From IMG/VR virus record IMGVR_UViG_3300035152_000011: a stretch of 15,385 nucleotides of DNA. One strand, given 5' to 3'. Below, one piece after another: positions 1 to 15,344 of this stretch. Positions within the stretch are counted from its first letter, which is position 1. Each line of letters starts with the position of its first letter. Source of the stretch: a virus. The translations under genes and the position numbers were made by a program. The notes beneath the pieces were generated by a model. It was not told the origin of the DNA and did no database searches. It saw only the letters and a program-made list of their open reading frames with translations.

Positions 1-351
1 CAGCGAGTCGATCATGTTCGGGTTGTTCTCCATGCACAAATGGAAGTAGTCCACGATGTTGTAGATCGCCAGGTCGTACATCTTGCCGGCCTCGGGATCA
101 TCGACGTGGTGCTTCTGCCACTGGTTGAAGCGTTGCTTCTGGCGGCCGAAGCCGTCGATCTCGCCGCGCAGATGACGGAAGATTTCATCCTTGGGCGGGA
201 TACAGAACCCGTAGATGTCCACGTCGCTGGCGTCGGTCGAGACGCCGTAGGCGATAGAGCCCATCATCGTCTCGTAGTGGACGTTCGAGGGCAGAAACCC
301 GGGTGGCGTGATCAGTCCGCGTTCGGTGAGCCGTTGTACTGTGCTAGCCAT
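1..351 (-). CDS. nucleotidyltransferase, Pol-beta superfamily (RlaP/MNT-like), N-terminal ~117 aa only; gene continues beyond window start
   Basis: Minus-strand ATG at 351..349 (cat on plus). Not in the supplied ORF track because the ORF runs off the edge without a stop. Hand translation: MASTVQRLTERGLITPPGFLPSNVHYETMMGSIAYGVSTDASDVDIYGFCIPPKDEIFRHLRGEIDGFGRQKQRFNQWQKHHVDDPEAGKMYDLAIYNIVDYFHLCMENNPNMIDSL. GS-x9-SDVD is the canonical G[SG]...[DE]h[DE]h nucleotidyltransferase signature. Start overlaps the TAG stop (346..344) of the upstream gene by 8 nt. Confidence 0.7.
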   Translation of the reverse strand, partial: MASTVQRLTERGLITPPGFLPSNVHYETMMGSIAYGVSTDASDVDIYGFCIPPKDEIFRHLRGEIDGFGRQKQRFNQWQKHHVDDPEAGKMYDLAIYNIVDYFHLCMENNPNMIDSL

Positions 352-6669: not shown

Positions 6670-7602
6670 TCACCGCGGGCCCTCCATGAGTGCTACGTCG
6701 ATCTTGTGCAGCGTCTCGAATTCGCGCAGGCCGGTCTGGTAGCGCTCGGGGATACCTTCCAGCCCGAACCGGGCGCCGAGGATCGCGCCTGTGATCGCGC
6801 CGCGAGTATCGGTGTCCCCACCGCCCCGGATGGCCGCCACGACGCCTTGCTCGAAGTCAGCTGCCCAGGCTGCACAGAAGAGCGCCGTGGCCACGGTCTG
6901 GCTGACGTTCCCGAAGCGGCCGATCTTGCGGATGACCTCGGGCGGCGGCGTAAGACCTTGCATCAGGTAGTAGACCTGCTCGACCAGCTCGAAGACGCGC
7001 GTGCCCACGTAGGTCTCGCCGTACTGGGGCGCCAGGGCTTCCAGAACGGCCTCCAGCAGCCCGTAGCCGCGGACGCCTTCCAGGCTCCGCTTGACCGCCC
7101 AGGCCACTGCGAGTGAGCCTGCGGCCGCCTCGGGGCCCTGGTGCGTGATCGCTGCGTCCTCGACCGACCGTACGACGAGCAGGTCTGGGCTATCGCGGTA
7201 CCAAACGCCCAGAGGCGCGACCCGCATCGCGGTTCCATTGCCGACCGTGAGCGGGTCCTCGAACACGACCCCGGACTGGTTTGGCGGAGTACCAGCGGCC
7301 AGCGCAGCCATCGCTTTCCTGGTCGTCCCGCCCATACCGTGCGGGGTGTCCTGTGCCCAGGCCAGGTAGCGCTGAGCTGCGTCCTCGACCACGTAGCCCT
7401 CATGAGCGATCAGCGACTCAGCCAGAGCCATCGCCATCTCGGTGTCGTCGGTCCAGTGTCCGGCCGGCAGCTTGTGGTGCGTACCCGGCCGGTAGTTACC
7501 TGCCCACGTCGGTAGGTCTTTGTGAACCGCGTCGCCGCGTCGCTCGAAGGGCATTCCGAGCGCGTCCCCGACCGCGAGGCCGACCATGACTGCCGAGGTC
7601 AT
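6670..7602 (-). CDS. ADP-ribosylglycohydrolase (ARH/DraG family), 310 aa
   Basis: Track ORF 6670..7686 trimmed to ATG 7602 (MTSAVMVGLAVGDALGMPFE...) with AAAGGAG 6 nt upstream and an ATGA overlap with the upstream gene. N-terminal GxxxGDALGxPxE motif plus C-terminal GGDTDTRGAITGAILGARFG motif are the two hallmark metal-site segments of the ADP-ribosylglycohydrolase fold (PF03747). Confidence 0.9.
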   Translation of the reverse strand: MTSAVMVGLAVGDALGMPFERRGDAVHKDLPTWAGNYRPGTHHKLPAGHWTDDTEMAMALAESLIAHEGYVVEDAAQRYLAWAQDTPHGMGGTTRKAMAALAAGTPPNQSGVVFEDPLTVGNGTAMRVAPLGVWYRDSPDLLVVRSVEDAAITHQGPEAAAGSLAVAWAVKRSLEGVRGYGLLEAVLEALAPQYGETYVGTRVFELVEQVYYLMQGLTPPPEVIRKIGRFGNVSQTVATALFCAAWAADFEQGVVAAIRGGGDTDTRGAITGAILGARFGLEGIPERYQTGLREFETLHKIDVALMEGPR

Positions 7603-7790
7603 TCCGGCTCCTTTCCGCTGCCCCGACAGCGAACGCAGACGTGCATCATTCCATCGCCGTGGAGACGTTCTCCGCGGCCGTCGCACCAGATGCAGTCGCG
7701 CCGCTCCAAGGCCTTGACCCTGCGCTGGAGATCAGCGACCTGTGCTTCCAGGTCGGTGAAGCGCTTGGAATCGAGCAGTCCGTTAGCCAT
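7599..7790 (-). CDS. small zinc-ribbon protein, 63 aa
   Basis: ATG 7790 (second Met of the track ORF; GAGGGTGA upstream). CIWCDG...CVRCRGSG gives two CxxC pairs. N-terminal coiled-coil-like DLEAQVADLQRRVKALERR. Confidence 0.65.
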   Translation of the reverse strand: MANGLLDSKRFTDLEAQVADLQRRVKALERRDCIWCDGRGERLHGDGMMHVCVRCRGSGKEPE

Positions 7791-7995
7791 CACTCACCCT
7801 CGCGTCCTGCTTGGTAGCCTTCAGTCGGCTGCCGTCCAGGTTCCAACAGTAGCCGTGACGGTCGCGGTGTGGTCCCTCATGACCTGGTGACCGAACGCAC
7901 GGGAAGTCGGCCAGGACCGGGAAGTGTCCCGAGTACTTGCCGCATGATTCCGGCTCGGGCCGAAGGTTCGGATACCTTTCATAGAGCGGGTCCAT
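7783..7995 (-). CDS. small Cys/His-containing protein, 70 aa
   Basis: Track ORF 7783..8349 is mostly S/R/T-rich out-of-frame overlap with the HAD gene. Trimmed to ATG 7995 (MDPLYERYPNLRPEPESCGKYSGHFPVLADFPCVRSPGHEGPHRDRHGYCWNLDG...) with AAAGGA upstream. GC3 about 71%. Overlaps the HAD stop by 17 nt. Confidence 0.5.
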   Translation of the reverse strand: MDPLYERYPNLRPEPESCGKYSGHFPVLADFPCVRSPGHEGPHRDRHGYCWNLDGSRLKATKQDARVSDG

Positions 7996-8605
7996 CTGGT
8001 CCTTTCTGTGCCGACGCGCGAGCCTTGAACATGCGCTCACGAACCTGGCCGAGGTTGTGGCCGTCGTAGATGACGAGGTTCGGATGCGTGATGTCACTGT
8101 TCCACCGCTGCTTGATCGCGACGACCAGCCCGCGCGGCCGGACTTCGAGCCAGGGGAGAAAGTAGGGCGGCCAGTCATCGACCAACACCTTGCCGTAGAC
8201 CAACGACTTCTTCTGGCCGATGGTGACGTGTAGATCGGGGACGTGCTCCTGGCACCACTCGACCTTCTCCATCCAAGCGCGAGGATTCCACGGCCCCTTG
8301 GTAAGCGCGTGGTTCTCGAAGCCCAGACCGCGGGCAACCTCCAGGACATGGAACCCGTGTTCGAGCCGTTGCAAGTTACGCCAGAACCCGACCTGGTTCT
8401 TGATCAACGTGCGCCGCTCGGCAAGGTAGCGGGCCTTGCCGTACCACCAGGGCTCGGCGCCTAAAGGCGTTGTACGGGTCGCGATCTCAGCAGGCGATAC
8501 CAGCCGCTCCATCCCCTCGGCCATCGCAGTATCGTAATCAGCGAGCGTGCCGTCGAGATCGAATAGACAGACCGCATCATGCGGTGTCGGATCGGGCTTC
8601 GCCAT
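7979..8605 (-). CDS. HAD-superfamily phosphatase, NT5C-like 5'(3')-deoxyribonucleotidase family, 208 aa
   Basis: ATG 8605 with AAGGAGG at 7-nt spacing. Motif I FDLDGTLADY (DxDGT) and a motif-IV-like LVDDWP. Size and motif spacing resemble the small capless NT5C nucleotidases. Confidence 0.8.
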   Translation of the reverse strand: MAKPDPTPHDAVCLFDLDGTLADYDTAMAEGMERLVSPAEIATRTTPLGAEPWWYGKARYLAERRTLIKNQVGFWRNLQRLEHGFHVLEVARGLGFENHALTKGPWNPRAWMEKVEWCQEHVPDLHVTIGQKKSLVYGKVLVDDWPPYFLPWLEVRPRGLVVAIKQRWNSDITHPNLVIYDGHNLGQVRERMFKARASAQKGPDGPAL

Positions 8606-9071: not shown

Positions 9072-9404
9072 TTACGCTTCGGGGAGAAACTTCTTCAGCT
9101 CCTCTTCGATCTCTTTCTTCGGCAACGCGCCGACGAGCTGTGCGACGACTTCCTCACCCTGGAAGATGAGCAGCGTCGGTACGGCCTGGATGCCGTAGCG
9201 GTCGGTGACCTTCGAGGCTTCGTCCACGTTGACCTTGCCGACGCTGAGCTTCCCGTCGTATTGCTTCGCGAGCTGGGCGACGATGGGCCCGATGACTTTG
9301 CAGGGCCCACACCACTCCGCCGTGAAGTCCACGAGCGTGACCTTCGATGCGGTCAAGAAGGCGTCGAAGGTGTCGTCGGTCAGGTCGGTTACTTGCTTGC
9401 TCAT
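9072..9404 (-). CDS. trxA: thioredoxin, 110 aa
   Basis: Track ORF trimmed to ATG 9404 (MSKQVTDLTDDTFDAFL...) with GAGGAA upstream. Active-site WCGPC in the DFTAEWCGPCK context. Full thioredoxin-fold length. First gene downstream of the AT-rich control region. Confidence 0.9.
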   Translation of the reverse strand: MSKQVTDLTDDTFDAFLTASKVTLVDFTAEWCGPCKVIGPIVAQLAKQYDGKLSVGKVNVDEASKVTDRYGIQAVPTLLIFQGEEVVAQLVGALPKKEIEEELKKFLPEA

Positions 9405-9446
9405 GATTTCCTCACGAAAAAAAGTTGGTGGCCGCGCGGTCACGCT

Positions 9447-9682: not shown

Positions 9683-9982
9683 ATGGCAAAGCGCAAACTG
9701 AATGGTGTCCCCGTGAAGCGCGGGCAGACGTACCGCGTGCGGCGGTCGGGGAAGGCTCCGATCTACGTTCGCGTCGCCCGCGTCACGAACGGGCAGCAGC
9801 CCAAAGCGTTCCTGTATCGAGTGACCCGCAGCGGCCGGCGCGTCGGTCCGCGGCGCATTGTTGCCAGCACCAAGCTGGAGAACAACGAGCTGAAGAAGAC
9901 CTACGCGGTCAACACCATCGCGCACTGGCTCACCTGGCGCGACGACGCCTGGCGCATGCCTGAGAGCTGGGAGCTGGTATAG
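9683..9982 (+). CDS. highly basic 99-aa protein with internal duplication; function unknown (nucleic-acid binding suspected)
   Basis: ATG 9683 preceded by GGAGATCGAGG. GC3 about 86%. Sequence: MAKRKLNGVPVKRGQTYRVRRSGKAPIYVRVARVTNGQQPKAFLYRVTRSGRRVGPRRIVAS... Two YRVxRSGxx(V/I) repeat units. Only plus-strand gene in the window. Confidence 0.75.
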   Translation: MAKRKLNGVPVKRGQTYRVRRSGKAPIYVRVARVTNGQQPKAFLYRVTRSGRRVGPRRIVASTKLENNELKKTYAVNTIAHWLTWRDDAWRMPESWELV

Positions 9983-11371: not shown

Positions 11372-12040
11372 CTATTCGTCGTCTTCTGCCCCGCGGCCTT
11401 CGAGCATTGCGCGGGCCTCGGGGCGGTTCTTCAGTACGTGCAGTCCGGTCTTGTTGATCGCGTTCTGGATGAATGCCTCGACCTCGGCCTTCGCTGCGGC
11501 GACTACCTTATCGGTCGCACGCTGAAACTGCGTGACTGCGAATGGCATGTCTGCTGTGATGGCCTGATGAAGGAGCTGGACCGCCTTCTCGACTTCCTCG
11601 CGCGTCTTCTTCGAGCTGCGCTTGAGCGCCTTCACGACAACATCGGTCAGCTCTTGATAGCGGTCGCTGATCTCCTGGGTGTACTCCTCGAATCCGTTGT
11701 GGACGCGCTCGACCTCCGTCTCGTCATCGGGCGGGTCGTCGATGTTTCCCTGGCCACGCACGAACCGAATCGTGCACGGTACGCCGCCGCCGTAGTTCAG
11801 CGACGTGAGCATCTCAGCGAATTGGACCGCCGACATCTCGACCTCGATGAACTGCCCAGTCGGGTGGTACCACTCCTTGCTCAGATCGAAGTGGACCTCG
11901 CCCTCGCTGATCGTCAGCCGAACGGTCGCATGGTGGTCTTTGATCGAGCTGCCGAACAGCCGGCCACTACGCCCGCTACAGCGCGCGCACGAAATCATCC
12001 CGTAGGACGGATGTGTGCGGCTGTCGCCTCGCTTCTTCAT
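11372..12040 (-). CDS. hypothetical protein, 222 aa
   Basis: Track ORF 11372..12469 trimmed to ATG 12040 (MKKRGDSRTHPSYGMISCARCSG...) with AGGAGA upstream, 7 nt after the PRP gene stop. The upstream 143 codons of the track ORF are S/T/R-rich out-of-frame overlap with the PRP gene. Confidence 0.7.
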   Translation of the reverse strand: MKKRGDSRTHPSYGMISCARCSGRSGRLFGSSIKDHHATVRLTISEGEVHFDLSKEWYHPTGQFIEVEMSAVQFAEMLTSLNYGGGVPCTIRFVRGQGNIDDPPDDETEVERVHNGFEEYTQEISDRYQELTDVVVKALKRSSKKTREEVEKAVQLLHQAITADMPFAVTQFQRATDKVVAAAKAEVEAFIQNAINKTGLHVLKNRPEARAMLEGRGAEDDE

Positions 12041-12047
12041 GACTCTC

Positions 12048-13025
12048 CTAGTACCGTGATTTGGGCCGTTGCGCGGCAATCGCAATCGCCATCGCGTAGG
12101 CCGCGTCCATGAGCTTGTCGAGCGGTTCGAGCAAGAAGTCGCTGCCAGTCGCTGCACGGTCGAGCCACAGCTTACGGAGCGCGACCTCCATATCCGGCTG
12201 GGTGACGTTTCCGCCCTTGGGTATCTGATAATCAGCGCGCCGCAGGAGCGGCCCCAGCTCGTCCAGCCTACCCCAGTTGCAGAGGTCTGTGGGGACGTGG
12301 CTCGCGTCGGTGAGCTGCATGCCGGTGAAGTCGCAGCGGTTGTGCCCCTCGTGAGAAATGCCTTGAAGGCTTGCCCCGGACAGATCGGCATTGGCCAAGG
12401 TCGTACCCCGCAGGACGGCCTTATCCAAAGACGCTCCGCGTAGCGACGCACCAGTGAAATTGGCGTCATCGAGCTTCGCGCCTCGAAGGTCAGCGCCGTC
12501 GAGGCACGCTCCAGAGAAGTCAGCGTCGTTCAACGCGGCCCCGCGCAGGTCGGCACCTTCGAGTGAAGTGGACGCGAACCGCGGCTTGCTGTGAAACACA
12601 GCCTTGCGGAGATCGGCTTTGTCGAACACAGCGCCGAGCGCATTGCAGTTACTGAACACCGCCTCACGCATCTTCGCAGCGCTGAAGTCGGTGTCCGGGA
12701 CGTTCGCGCCTGTCAGATCCACGCCCGGCATACTCGCACCCACGAAGATCGCGCCATCGGCGTTGGCCCCTTCCAGGACTGCCCTAGCGAAATCTGCCTT
12801 TGACAGATCGCACGCGGTCAGGTTGACGTGCTTCAAGGTGAGTCCTGCGAAGTCGAAGCCAACGTAGTCGCGCCGCTGGAAGTCAGCGCGTTCGAGCGGC
12901 ACGCGGGCGAGCAGCGCCCAGCTCTCGCGGGGCGTCATGTCCTCGAACGTGACTTTGCGGCCGTCGAACAGCATGATCTCTGGATCGCTAGACTCTTCTG
13001 CGGTGTGCTCGGGTTCCTTGGTCAT
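12048..13025 (-). CDS. pentapeptide-repeat protein, 325 aa
   Basis: ATG 13025 in an ATGA overlap with the upstream stop. Residues about 55-225 are tandem A(D/N)LxG-type pentapeptides (...ADLRGAALNDADFSGACLDGADLRGAKLDDANFTGASLRGASLDKAVLRGTTLANADLSGASLQG...), predicting a right-handed quadrilateral beta-helix. Non-repeat N- and C-terminal extensions. Confidence 0.85.
   Translation of the reverse strand: MTKEPEHTAEESSDPEIMLFDGRKVTFEDMTPRESWALLARVPLERADFQRRDYVGFDFAGLTLKHVNLTACDLSKADFARAVLEGANADGAIFVGASMPGVDLTGANVPDTDFSAAKMREAVFSNCNALGAVFDKADLRKAVFHSKPRFASTSLEGADLRGAALNDADFSGACLDGADLRGAKLDDANFTGASLRGASLDKAVLRGTTLANADLSGASLQGISHEGHNRCDFTGMQLTDASHVPTDLCNWGRLDELGPLLRRADYQIPKGGNVTQPDMEVALRKLWLDRAATGSDFLLEPLDKLMDAAYAMAIAIAAQRPKSRY
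12350..12860. repeat. tandem 15-nt periodic DNA repeats = coding repeats of the pentapeptide-repeat gene
   Basis: Periodicity is visible even in the antisense track ORFs (APRRSAPS recurring). Fully explained by the PRP coding sequence. Approximate bounds. Confidence 0.6.
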
Positions 13026-13327
13026 CCCGTAGTGGTATCACTCGGGGCTGACAGAAGTGGCTCAGGGGCCAGCTCGTCGTAGGCCTGCATCAACATCTCG
13101 TGAGCCTTCGAGATCGCAACGATGGCCGCGCCACCGAGCAACATCTCCATCTCACAGAGCTGCTGGTACGAAGCCGCAGCTTCTTCGCGCTCAGTATGTT
13201 GGCCGGTCTGCGCCAGCATGACGACCTTCTCACCCATGTCCATCCGCTGCTCGTTGTTTCTCGACCACTGGCGCATCGCGTCCAGTGCGTTGGTGTAGGC
13301 GTCTCGGGCAGCTTGTAGATTGCTCAT
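13022..13327 (-). CDS. hypothetical acidic protein, 101 aa
   Basis: ATG 13327 with GGAGGAA at 7-nt spacing. TGATG overlap with upstream stop. ATGA overlap with the PRP start. Confidence 0.7.
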   Translation of the reverse strand: MSNLQAARDAYTNALDAMRQWSRNNEQRMDMGEKVVMLAQTGQHTEREEAAASYQQLCEMEMLLGGAAIVAISKAHEMLMQAYDELAPEPLLSAPSDTTTG

Positions 13328-14706: not shown

Positions 14707-15150
14707 CTAGGATGACTTCGAGGCGGATCGGAGCACCGTCTCTCTGTCGTCGTTGAATAGCGGACTGCAACACCCCTGGCCGATTGCCAGTTCGTGCTCG
14801 AACCGAGAGCGCTGGTCGCCGCTCGATTGCGTGATGCGTTCGCACAAATACCTCCCCTTCTGATCTGGGTCCTCGGCCAGAAACCTACAGGGTACACCCT
14901 CGCCGAGGTGACAGGGCGCCTGTTTACAGCAGAAGCCGCAGCGGACGCACGGGCGTCGCGGCTGCCTCTTGTGGACGTAGCGGAGCTGGTCGCCATCATG
15001 AACGACGTAGCCCTTGCGGATGAAATGATCGAGCAGCTTGTCGTCGGCCGCTTTACAGCCTGCGAAGAGCTGCTCGCGTGTGAACGGTGCGCCGTCAAGC
15101 GCTTCGAGCCACCAGGCGATCTCCTCGTGGATGTGCAGCACGTACGGCAT
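14707..15150 (-). CDS. CxxCxxCC zinc/iron-chelating domain protein (YkgJ/UPF0153-like), 147 aa
   Basis: ATG 15150 (second Met of the track ORF) with GAGGGGA upstream and a TGATG overlap with the upstream stop. CVRCGFCC plus downstream Cys residues fits the CxxCGxCC signature of PF03692. Confidence 0.7.
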   Translation of the reverse strand: MPYVLHIHEEIAWWLEALDGAPFTREQLFAGCKAADDKLLDHFIRKGYVVHDGDQLRYVHKRQPRRPCVRCGFCCKQAPCHLGEGVPCRFLAEDPDQKGRYLCERITQSSGDQRSRFEHELAIGQGCCSPLFNDDRETVLRSASKSS

Positions 15151-15344
15151 CAAATCCCCTCGATCACGACGTCGAGCTTTGCTTGCGCTTTGGTCTGTCG
15201 CCAGAAGCGGATCTTCGAGGTGTCGCCGCCGGCCAATGCGATCTCGATCAGTTGCCGTGGTAGGTCGCTCCGTTTGAGCTTCTTGAAGACCGTACCCAGC
15301 TCGCCTTCTTCATACTCGATCAGGATCTCTTCGTTCGGGCTCAC
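15150..15344 (-). CDS. hypothetical small protein, 64 aa
   Basis: GTG 15344 with GGAGA 6 nt upstream. GC3 about 77%. Sequence: VSPNEEILIEYEEGELGTVFKKLKRSDLPRQLIEIALAGGDTSKIRFWRQTKAQAKLDVVIEGI. Confidence 0.65.
   Translation of the reverse strand: MSPNEEILIEYEEGELGTVFKKLKRSDLPRQLIEIALAGGDTSKIRFWRQTKAQAKLDVVIEGI

Follow-up and report, generated by a model that had tools for sequence, protein, structure and literature searches.

A phage-only pentapeptide-repeat protein encoded beside a conserved small partner gene

The window analysed here is a 15,385-nt stretch of viral DNA (IMG/VR record IMGVR_UViG_3300035152_000011). It carries a 325-codon ORF with an ATG start, 12048..13025, that encodes a pentapeptide-repeat protein (PRP). 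A preliminary description had claimed a 325-aa PRP at these positions; the ORF list with its translation and Pfam bear this out and place the gene on the minus strand, which had been left unstated. The Pfam Pentapeptide model PF00805 matched at E = 1.5e-39 (133.6 bits, cutoff 20.2), and the assignment therefore lies far outside chance; the Pentapeptide_4 and Pentapeptide_3 models likewise scored above cutoff. An identical 325-aa protein is found on two public contigs, where independent gene calls give the same boundaries. Against its ortholog in lineage L001 the gene shows dN/dS = 0.15, indicating that the reading frame is truly coding. Reading out the sequence also recovered two further claimed features: an ATGA at 13022–13025 where the ORF overlaps the upstream 101-aa gene, and a spacer of 7 nt before the next gene, where TAG-GAGAGTC-ATG, containing GGAG, precedes a 222-aa ORF. 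No promoters or terminators were detected, and searching the 15-kb window for tRNAs, Rfam families and tandem repeats gave nothing relevant. Feature coordinates are collected in Table 1.

Table 1. Positions of the PRP gene, its parts and its immediate neighbours in the window
Feature	Position	Strand	Evidence and remarks
Partner CDS, 101 aa, acidic, probably helical	13022..13327	-	TGA stop overlaps PRP start (ATGA)
PRP CDS, 325 aa	12048..13025	-	Stop TAG 12048-12050; ORF list, Pfam, public gene calls, dN/dS
Acidic disordered N-terminal tail, aa 1-15	12981..13025	-	AlphaFold2 pLDDT 38; poorly conserved
N-cap, subfamily-specific, aa 16-41: beta-hairpin (16-18, 24-26) and helix (32-40)	12903..12980	-	AlphaFold2 pLDDT 76-87
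Repeat block 1, aa 42-146, 21 pentapeptides sharing one register	12588..12902	-	Register analysis; pLDDT >90
KPRFAS bulge, one extra residue, +1 register, aa 147-152	12570..12587	-	Present in close group, absent from distant members
Repeat block 2, 14 pentapeptides, most canonical part, aa 153-222	12360..12569	-	Register; top Pfam stretch 183-222
Degenerate last coil(s), ..CDFTGMQL..VP, aa 223-245	12291..12359	-	Strands to aa ~242, pLDDT 88-91
C-terminal helical module, aa 246-325; helices 255-265, 276-293, 302-317	12051..12290	-	Defines subfamily; AlphaFold2 and profile searches
Spacer GAGAGTC, 7 nt, PRP stop to next ATG	12041..12047	-	GGAG Shine-Dalgarno-like element across stop codon; sequence read-out
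Downstream 222-aa gene, phrog_6452	11372..12040	-	PHROG E=7.8e-47; adjoins PRP here, outside the module

Register analysis resolved 35 in-register pentapeptides in two blocks of 21 and 14, between which the six-residue unit KPRFAS moves the register by +1. About 34 consecutive A(D/N)LxG repeats had been proposed: the count holds, but the register shift keeps the repeats from being strictly consecutive, and the literal motif is in the minority (A[DN][LF]xx in 8 of 35, A[DN][LF]xG in 5 of 35). Of the 35 units, 32 have a hydrophobic centre, 32 a small residue at i-2 and 18 a G at position 5. AlphaFold2 modelled aa ~45–245 as a right-handed quadrilateral beta-helix of about 10 coils with pLDDT >90, in agreement with the quadrilateral beta-helix that had been predicted from the repeats. 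Tandem repeats and four pentapeptides per coil of such a helix identify the protein as a member of the pentapeptide-repeat family (PF00805; Rfr fold). Across the subfamily described below, G235 and P245 are invariant and the number of coils is kept without indels. Conservation of outward-facing residues differs between the faces of the solenoid, at 0.86/0.77 for faces 2–3 and 0.54/0.61 for faces 1 and 4.

Outside the repeats lie about 41 residues at the N-terminus and about 80 at the C-terminus. The first 41 residues carry a net charge of -5, and the N-cap motif L.DGR.V...W..LAR is common to the window protein and the distant members P0122–P0124. The C-terminal module, with the motif LRKLWLDRA..G.D.LLEP...L.DAA.A.AIAIA, contains the most conserved segment of the protein (aa 282–318) and shares 89, 81 and 70% identity with close relatives and 41–54% with distant ones. 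The strongest constraint thus falls on the C-terminal helices, not on the repeats. A profile search of 1.84 billion representatives located this module only at the C-terminus of ~300–350-aa PRPs, and a remote-homology search of solved structures found no PDB homolog for it. It also has the lowest pLDDT in the monomer model (52–76). We considered whether the module is what remains of the 'H..W..S.G..G' linker that joins the domains of cellular two-domain PRPs and rejected this at an hhalign probability of 14%.

The window protein ends in the subfamily motif KLW(L/F)D..(x)GG/S.D.L.EP...(V/L).DAA.A.A.AI, which closes a ~300–350-aa PRP and is common to P0001, P0002/L006, L012, L013, L015 and P0122–P0126. 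Together these proteins define a distinct, phage-only PRP subfamily with an N-cap, repeats, a three-helix C-terminal module and an upstream partner of ~100 aa. The subfamily is rare, with about nine lineages confined to phage-like contigs. No true member was found among 185,579 species-representative bacterial and archaeal genomes, prophages included; the sole match there (L009) proved to be a motif occurring by chance within a GC-rich membrane protein. Scans of JGI metagenome contigs yielded no further members. Viral sequences scanned with flanking genes as seeds, or with the C-terminal profile of the distant branch (A5), gave nothing or only the same two IMG/VR contigs, and a word-indexed search with the C-terminal profile returned two fragments only. 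Near-identical DNA was not found among GenBank phages, and the conserved DUF2201 neighbour shares at most 30% identity with any phage. Family PRPs lie on IMG/VR contigs of 147 and 150 kb, and the partner occurs on a 143-kb contig, which carries P0128; the ~145-kb genomes concerned include this contig and IMGVR_UViG_3300034782_000041. The carrier is a rare uncultured lineage of ~145–150-kb phages. The best cellular PRP matches and the relatives of phrog_6452 weakly suggest an alphaproteobacterial host.

Immediately upstream of the PRP lies the 101-aa gene, whose product, as had been noted, is acidic (net charge -8, pI 4.5). The partner has no homolog that we could find in Pfam, PHROG, NCBIfam or the PDB. 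Homologous genes of ~100 aa precede the PRP in the window and in seven further lineages. In L001, L006, L012, L013/L014 and L015 the two genes overlap by 4 nt, and in the distant L004 and L010 they are separated by a gap of 4–5 nt; in the close group the PRP is translationally coupled to the partner. All eight partner clusters in a 5.8-billion-protein collection adjoin a family PRP (8/8). The two proteins have diverged in parallel, to about 32–33% identity for the partner and about 33–35% for the PRP. In L010 the pair is kept and the surrounding genes are not: the 183-aa gene upstream and the 222-, 243- and 152-aa genes downstream are missing or replaced. Hence the ~100-aa protein and the PRP form a conserved two-gene module whose pairing survives replacement of both flanks. 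The linkage is drawn from few independent lineages, about nine, and shared ancestry could account for part of the adjacency in phages with a common backbone.

Among the assessable lineages, L005 alone has the PRP without a partner gene. The long N-terminal extension of the L005 PRP gave no HMM match, and we rejected it as a fused partner. We also considered whether the 319–322-aa proteins that follow the partner in L012–L014 are non-PRP replacements of the slot, since they carried the entry '-'; this entry denotes no stored Pfam record, not an absence of repeats, and translation identified all of them as family PRPs with 55–64% identity.

The preliminary description had suggested that both flanking proteins may act with the PRP. 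Conserved adjacency links the 101-aa gene to it, but not the 222-aa gene, which belongs to a group (phrog_6452) found in 98 phage records with no PRP beside it; Mesorhizobium phage Cp1R7A-A1 is one of these. In L001 and in one JGI contig a 99–108-aa gene is inserted between the PRP and the 222-aa gene, and the latter is absent from the distant loci L003, L004, L005 and L010. Because it is widespread without a PRP, split off by insertions in close relatives and missing from distant loci, we rejected the 222-aa gene as a functional partner. The wider neighbourhood encodes a thioredoxin, an NT5C-like nucleotidase, an ADP-ribosylglycohydrolase and many ORFans; neither the 15-kb window nor the relatives' flanks showed a recognisable structural, packaging or replication gene. 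None of the PRP, the partner and four neighbouring proteins matched a defence or candidate defence model of PADLOC-DB, and no anti-defence family was hit. The position directly after the PRP is an insertion hot-spot, which carries a lipoprotein-like moron.

The PRP is under purifying selection. Gene-wide positive selection was seen neither in the PRP (for its ratio see above) nor in the partner (dN/dS = 0.28), and dS was near saturation, which makes these ratios uninformative about an arms race rather than negative. All recovered relatives have the pair except L005, which lacks the partner, and in this the pair looks more like a conserved lineage function than a fast-evolving arms-race gene. 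The relatives were sought with the PRP or the partner as seed (neighbour-gene seeds led to the same two contigs), and 'always present' is biased for that reason.

The PRP contains no catalytic domain and is predicted to be a rigid, mildly acidic beta-helix rod, a fold that serves as a general protein-binding scaffold. We tentatively favour the reading that it and its partner make up a two-gene accessory module of the phage, with the PRP as the larger subunit, and that this module binds a host protein non-catalytically during infection. This reading draws on the pairing with the partner, the putative docking role of the C-terminal helices, the conservation of faces 2–3, the accessory-gene neighbourhood and the precedent of a Vibrio phage PRP (24_60, below). 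The PRP and its ~100-aa partner would be made together and work together. The C-terminal helices, conserved and poorly self-packed, may be where the partner, a second PRP chain or both dock or oligomerise, and the better-conserved outward residues of solenoid faces 2–3 would provide the target-binding surface. Bound in this way, a host protein would be occluded or sequestered, either for host takeover or for counter-defence. That the bound protein is a DNA-handling enzyme, as the DNA-mimic idea has it, is a minority possibility.

The PRP has a net charge of -12 and a pI of 5.0, with 48 acidic and 36 basic residues; its acidity exceeds that of 91% of 118 generic PRPs and is similar to that of verified MfpA and QnrB1 sequences. 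The generic motif Asp at i-1 contributes most of this charge, which was computed from sequence. In the middle coils, the basic residues K136, R140, K141, K147 and R149 are invariant in the window PRP, P0001 and P0002.

Topoisomerase-interacting PRPs such as Qnr and MfpA dimerise by way of a C-terminal helix, and the homodimer is a rod of about 100 Å that matches DNA in size. By analogy, an acidic, DNA-shaped PRP dimer might bind host DNA gyrase or topoisomerase IV and either shield it from poisons, such as gyrase-targeting abortive-infection or TA toxins, or modulate supercoiling for the phage. We consider this unlikely. The preliminary description had called the repeats Qnr/MfpA-like, and in any specific sense they are not: the protein scored 56.1 bits against a cutoff of 240 for the Qnr family (NF033086), 35–53 bits against cutoffs of 425–500 for the QnrA/B/C/D/E/S/VC models, and 58.2 bits against a cutoff of 360 for the MfpA family (NF000349). 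Among NCBIfam models, HetL, Alr5209 and PipB score above both Qnr and MfpA. In fold searches Qnr, MfpA and AlbG came after synthetic solenoids, Np275/276 and Rfr proteins; the fold matches all PRPs equally. Gyrase protection by Qnr needs surface loops A and B, which protrude from the solenoid (PMC10886550). These loops are not present in the PRP, whose sole repeat interruption is the one extra residue in KPRFAS and whose model coils are uninterrupted.

A role within the phage itself, with no host target, appears somewhat less probable still. Here the PRP would act as a rigid spacer in an assembly or scaffolding factor, in a virion or ejected protein, or in the phage's own replication machinery. 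The constancy of the pair in the recovered contigs fits such a role, as does purifying selection like that on the neighbours, more core-like than accessory-like, and PRP domains do exist within large phage proteins (phrog_923, 990 aa). The seed bias noted above weakens the argument from constancy, however, and the gene's surroundings, with their thioredoxin, nucleotidase, ADP-ribosylglycohydrolase and ORFans, offer no recognisable structural, packaging or replication gene. Of similarly low probability is a previously undescribed two-component counter-defence or host-takeover system in which the ~100-aa partner, acting on the conserved C-terminal helices, would regulate or assemble a DNA-like acidic beta-helix that blocks either an infection sensor or a DNA-processing enzyme of the host.

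The least probable of these readings is an Ocr/ArdA-like mimic that would imitate B-DNA and titrate type I/III R-M, BREX or other nucleases. The acidity of the PRP, its rod shape and its location among phage accessory genes would suit this reading, and Zavilgelsky and colleagues reportedly found weak anti-EcoKI activity for Qnr/MfpA-type PRPs. Ocr/ArdA-type mimics have a pI of about 4, few basic residues and carboxylates that mirror the phosphates of DNA; such extreme acidity is not found in the PRP, and the conserved basic residues in the middle coils would break a continuous anionic surface. DNA mimicry has been discussed for PRPs (PMC7261183), but McbG and QnrB did not inhibit BREX, from which the authors concluded that DNA mimicry alone is insufficient. 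The face-specific conservation of the solenoid, moreover, suits a protein–protein interface better than a cylindrical mimic.

PRPs are among the commonest 'hypothetical' phage proteins, and a function is known for almost none. The present analysis sets a small phage-only subfamily apart from the Qnr/MfpA group, with which such PRPs are routinely lumped. The conserved two-gene module with its small partner is a new result. Testing the PRP without this partner, as the preliminary description had proposed, could give a false negative. If the pair does bind a host enzyme or defence sensor, a two-subunit PRP effector would join the counter-defence repertoire; if it acts as the two-component system outlined above, no PRP effector before it is known to depend on a dedicated partner subunit.

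Compared with known systems, the PRP shares with the topoisomerase-interacting PRPs (MfpA, QnrB1/AhQnr/EfsQnr, AlbG and McbG) a right-handed quadrilateral beta-helix of 8–10 coils, the last of which is followed by a helix, and a comparable net charge per 100 aa (-3.7, against -2.7 to -2.8). Identity to them in structural alignments is 15–24%. The window protein is about 110–140 residues longer and has its own hairpin-and-helix N-cap and three-helix C-terminal module; unlike them it is phage-encoded, adjoins a ~100-aa partner and lacks the gyrase-poison or mfp-conservon context. Np275/Np276, Rfr32/Rfr23, HetL, Alr5209 and the synthetic Beta1 solenoids have neither the C-terminal module nor the partner and are all cellular, not viral; for all of them the window protein scores below the family cutoff (HetL 82 bits, cutoff 260; Alr5209 81 bits, cutoff 125).

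Among phage PRPs, only 24_60 of Vibrio phage '24' has genetic evidence of counter-defence, and it stands as a single precedent. It counters Sucellos, a RexAB-like abortive-infection system and not a nuclease, and its escape mutations fall inside the repeats (bioRxiv 10.1101/2024.07.02.601686), implying a binding-surface mechanism. The likeness to the window protein, compared by description and not by sequence, is that both are phage-encoded PRPs; 24_60 has no reported partner gene, and its target is an abortive-infection system, not a DNA-targeting enzyme. At E<=1e-3 the window protein matched 400 INPHARED records, none spanning >=80% of its length, and 35 BFVD models, with TM-scores normalised to the query of at most 0.51. 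Phage PRPs such as phrog_15350, 923, 7713 and 31265 and those of Caulobacter phages RW/RLK/KcrB, Microcystis phage MaMV-DC and the Rheinheimera Barba phages share the repeat core (aa ~35–250) at 35–44% identity; the N-cap, the C-terminal module and the partner gene belong only to the small subfamily of the window protein.

The window has 61% GC and carries nearly all of its plausible genes head to tail on the minus strand. One of them encodes a pentapeptide-repeat protein (PRP) that matches Pfam Pentapeptide (PF00805) at E=1.5e-39, with Pentapeptide_4 and Pentapeptide_3 likewise above their cutoffs. The preliminary description of a repeat array coupled on both sides holds: in the ATGA at 13022-13025 the TGA of a 101-aa gene overlaps the PRP's ATG, a 222-aa gene starts (ATG) 7 nt, including GGAG, after the PRP's TAG, and the PRP boundaries match public gene calls on two contigs encoding an identical protein. 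The array, now placed on the minus strand, is less regular than first described: its register breaks once and its units follow the motif loosely. The literal A(D/N)(L/F)xG/xx motif fits only 5-8 of 35 units, while the fold-defining hydrophobic centre and small i-2 residue are each present in 32 of 35. No DNA-level tandem repeat was found in the array. AlphaFold2, given an eight-sequence family alignment, modelled the protein at mean pLDDT 85 and pTM 0.79. The PRP is a rigid, non-enzymatic, mildly acidic beta-helix with family-specific caps.

Features of the PRP, its gene neighbourhood and the insertion site (window nucleotides unless stated)
Feature	Position	Strand	Detail
PRP ORF	12048-13025	-	ATG start, 325 aa
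Disordered acidic tail	PRP aa 1-15		AlphaFold2 model
Beta-hairpin and helix cap	PRP aa 16-40		pLDDT 76-87
Repeat block 1	PRP aa 42-146		21 pentapeptides in register
Regular beta-helix	PRP aa ~45-245		about 10 coils, pLDDT >90
Register break	PRP aa 147-152		six-residue unit KPRFAS, shift of one
Repeat block 2	PRP aa 153-222		14 further pentapeptides
Three helices	PRP aa 255-265, 276-293, 302-317		confidence drops from 78 to 52
222-aa gene	11372-12040	-	phrog_6452
Insert exactly between PRP and 222-aa gene	L001 9697-10023; JGI 3300042731 11-kb contig 7269-7568		99-108 aa
Cys-rich 148-aa protein	14707-15153	-	CxxC-type motifs, 89% conserved in L001
99-aa very basic protein	9683-9982	+	pI 11.6, region's only convincing plus-strand gene
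Thioredoxin	9072-9443	-	PF00085, E=1.6e-27
NT5C-like 5'-deoxynucleotidase	7979-8605	-	E=1e-6
ADP-ribosylglycohydrolase	6670-7686	-	PF03747, E=3e-73
Small ORF, about 59 aa	7605-7781	-	homolog in L005
Small ORF, about 54 aa	2525-2686	-	homolog in L005

Against 5.8 billion proteins, the PRP has 2,471 matches at E<=1e-5, only via its repeat core, with one close full-length relative (P0001, 74%) and one partial (P0002). A profile of its non-repeat C-terminus found eight proteins among 1.84 billion cluster representatives: seven are C-termini of 306-350-aa PRPs or fragments of such PRPs, and P0127 (E 9.8e-4) was set aside as an unrelated repetitive protein. The relatives share the N-cap L.DGR.V ... 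W..LAR and the C-terminal motifs KLW(L/F)D... and EP...(V/L).DAA.A.A.AI. Their contigs form a close group (L001, L006/L007, L012, L013/L014, L015) and a distant group (L003, L004, L005, L010); L001 (14.7 kb) is syntenic with the window at 72-94% amino-acid identity, and L006/L007 are IMG/VR contigs 147 and 150 kb long. Phage PRPs are generally very common, 400 records and 35 BFVD models being matched by this one, none with at least 80% coverage of it. No true family member occurs in 185,579 prokaryotic species (one genome each), GenBank phages hold no near DNA match to the window, and a search through a conserved neighbour gene found no close cultured relative. This is therefore a rare PRP subfamily found on phage-like contigs only, of an uncultured ~145-150-kb phage lineage.

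On L015, an ENA contig, two ORFs stand in place of the PRP gene, a 63-aa N-terminal one (583-774) and a separate one for the remainder (889-1494), 61-78% identical to the window PRP; the split could be a frameshift, pseudogene or assembly error. Outside the family, the repeat core is best matched by two-domain PRPs of ~420 aa from Alphaproteobacteria (Brevundimonas, Caulobacter, Phenylobacterium, Maricaulis); among cultured phages, the 222-aa gene has its closest homologs in those of Mesorhizobium, Sphingobium, Erythrobacter and Brevundimonas. Along with the GC content, these weakly hint at an alphaproteobacterial host.

Both flanking proteins had been proposed as co-actors; gene linkage across lineages favours the 101-aa protein and not the 222-aa one. 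The former is acidic (net -8) and probably helical, and no library searched places it in a family. Its homologs lie directly upstream of the PRP, each with a 4-nt overlap, in L001, L006, L012, L013/L014 and L015, and at 4-5-nt gaps in the distant L004 and L010. There they retain 32-33% identity (E 1e-10 to 1e-13; profile E 1e-26), paralleling the 33-35% identity of the PRPs. A search with the partner profile only returned eight clusters, all adjoining a family PRP. L010 keeps the pair without the upstream 183-aa gene and with the downstream 222-, 243- and 152-aa genes swapped for unrelated ones. Only L005 has a PRP without the partner, and the long N-terminal extension of that PRP, considered as a fused partner, is not partner-like. 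The 222-aa gene was rejected as a partner: it occurs in 98 phage records without a neighbouring PRP (e.g. Mesorhizobium phage Cp1R7A-A1), is parted from the PRP by an inserted gene in L001 and the JGI contig and by 62 nt in L013, and is missing from distant loci. Its product is the block's most conserved (92-94% identity to L001/L002, dN/dS 0.09) and is found widely, both in Microbacterium phages and in large phages infecting Alpha- and Gammaproteobacteria. Comparative genomics therefore suggests that partner and PRP form a functional unit.

The pair sits in an accessory-gene region, among a thioredoxin, an NT5C-like nucleotidase, an ADP-ribosylglycohydrolase, ORFans and, right after the PRP, a moron insertion site that looks like a hot-spot. 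The L001 insert has a signal peptide and a lipobox-like LAISC motif, features typical of a putative lipoprotein moron or superinfection-exclusion gene. The ADP-ribosylglycohydrolase, 4.4 kb downstream of the PRP, has partial similarity to DraG and to the Tri1 ADP-ribosylarginine hydrolase. The two most distant lineages, L005 (3973-4947) and L010 (3831-4775), encode homologs of 47-55% identity, with the gene 1.3-2.5 kb downstream of their PRP. The enzyme could counter ADP-ribosylating host toxins or merely reflect shared phage-backbone ancestry. Homologs of the two small ORFs in L005 (1100-1357 and 3265-3432, 49-55% identity) are ordered differently relative to PRP and ADP-ribosylglycohydrolase, which shows gene shuffling inside a shared accessory pool. 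The basic 99-aa protein, 76-87% conserved in L001/L013/L014 and 36% in L010, is always antiparallel to its neighbours beside the longest intergenic gaps, and may bind DNA as the regulator of a divergent control region. Further upstream, relatives carry an AAA_5/MoxR-like ATPase and a DUF2201 (VWA-type) protein (L001 1200-3525).

Within the PRP, conservation peaks in the last two helices (aa 282-318), at 89/81/70% identity in close and 41-54% in distant relatives, compared with about 24-42% in the repeats. The aa 264-281 linker is hypervariable, and coil number is constant among relatives, without indels. Because aa 282-318 are strongly conserved and have no confident placement in the monomer model, they are a candidate interface element. 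Among outward residues, faces 2 and 3 show the higher conservation, 0.86 and 0.77, against 0.54 and 0.61 for faces 1 and 4. Encoded in a tight gene chain, the PRP and its small acidic partner would be made together and function as a complex, with the C-terminal helices mediating partner binding and/or dimerisation and solenoid faces 2-3 binding the target. We tentatively favour, at somewhat less than an even chance, a complex that occludes or sequesters a host protein.

A version in which that target is gyrase or topoisomerase is unlikely. Topoisomerase-interacting PRPs (TiPRPs) dimerise through a C-terminal helix and have anionic surfaces (PMC10886550). The window PRP is indeed negative (net -12, pI 5.0, -3.7 per 100 aa), as are all family members (-2.1 to -5.4), compared with -2.7 for MfpA, -2.8 for QnrB1 (both sequences verified at every residue with PDB chains 2BM4 and 2XTW) and -2.8 for M. 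smegmatis MfpA (from the 6ZT4 alignment). The 118 generic PRPs taken from the homolog search have a median of -0.9, and just 9% of them exceed the window PRP in acidity. The proposed negativity is borne out as net charge, which is weak evidence for DNA mimicry: most of the charge is contributed by the canonical Asp at motif position i-1 (net -10 there); other exposed positions are neutral to positive, and several basic middle-coil residues are conserved within the close group. The proposed Qnr/MfpA likeness fails: curated NCBIfam models score 56 bits for Qnr (cutoff 240) and 58 for MfpA (cutoff 360), below HetL (82), Alr5209 (81) and PipB (70), each under its own cutoff, and the PRP has no Qnr-type loops.

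A purely phage-internal role is quite unlikely. Somewhat in its favour are the occurrence of the pair in every relative recovered (L005 alone lacks the partner), although with biased sampling, and the lack of an arms-race signature, although with dS between window and L001 near saturation. In that comparison every gene is under purifying selection (dN/dS 0.04-0.28; PRP 0.15, partner highest at 0.28), and PRP and partner are among the block's least conserved (~73-75% identity), with the NT5C-like protein (73.6%) and a 142-aa protein (75.4%). An Ocr-like anti-restriction mimic, for which the acidity is modest, is improbable. A PADLOC search gave no match. BREX is not inhibited by McbG or QnrB, DNA mimicry alone being insufficient according to those authors (PMC7261183).

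Phage PRPs are mostly annotated by analogy only in the literature. The sole genetic result is for Vibrio phage 24, where deletion of the PRP 24_60 gives sensitivity to the RexAB-like Sucellos system and escape mutations fall in the repeats (bioRxiv 10.1101/2024.07.02.601686); this is counter-defence, though not against a DNA-cutting enzyme. In practice, functional tests should use the PRP and partner genes together. The novelty is limited: it lies in a subfamily confined to phages and recognisable by its caps, in a C-terminal module that is more constrained than any other part, and in a partner gene of its own. The window protein belongs to the broad PRP family, outside Qnr and MfpA; it acts, as other PRPs do, as a rigid scaffold for binding, perhaps in the manner of TiPRPs.
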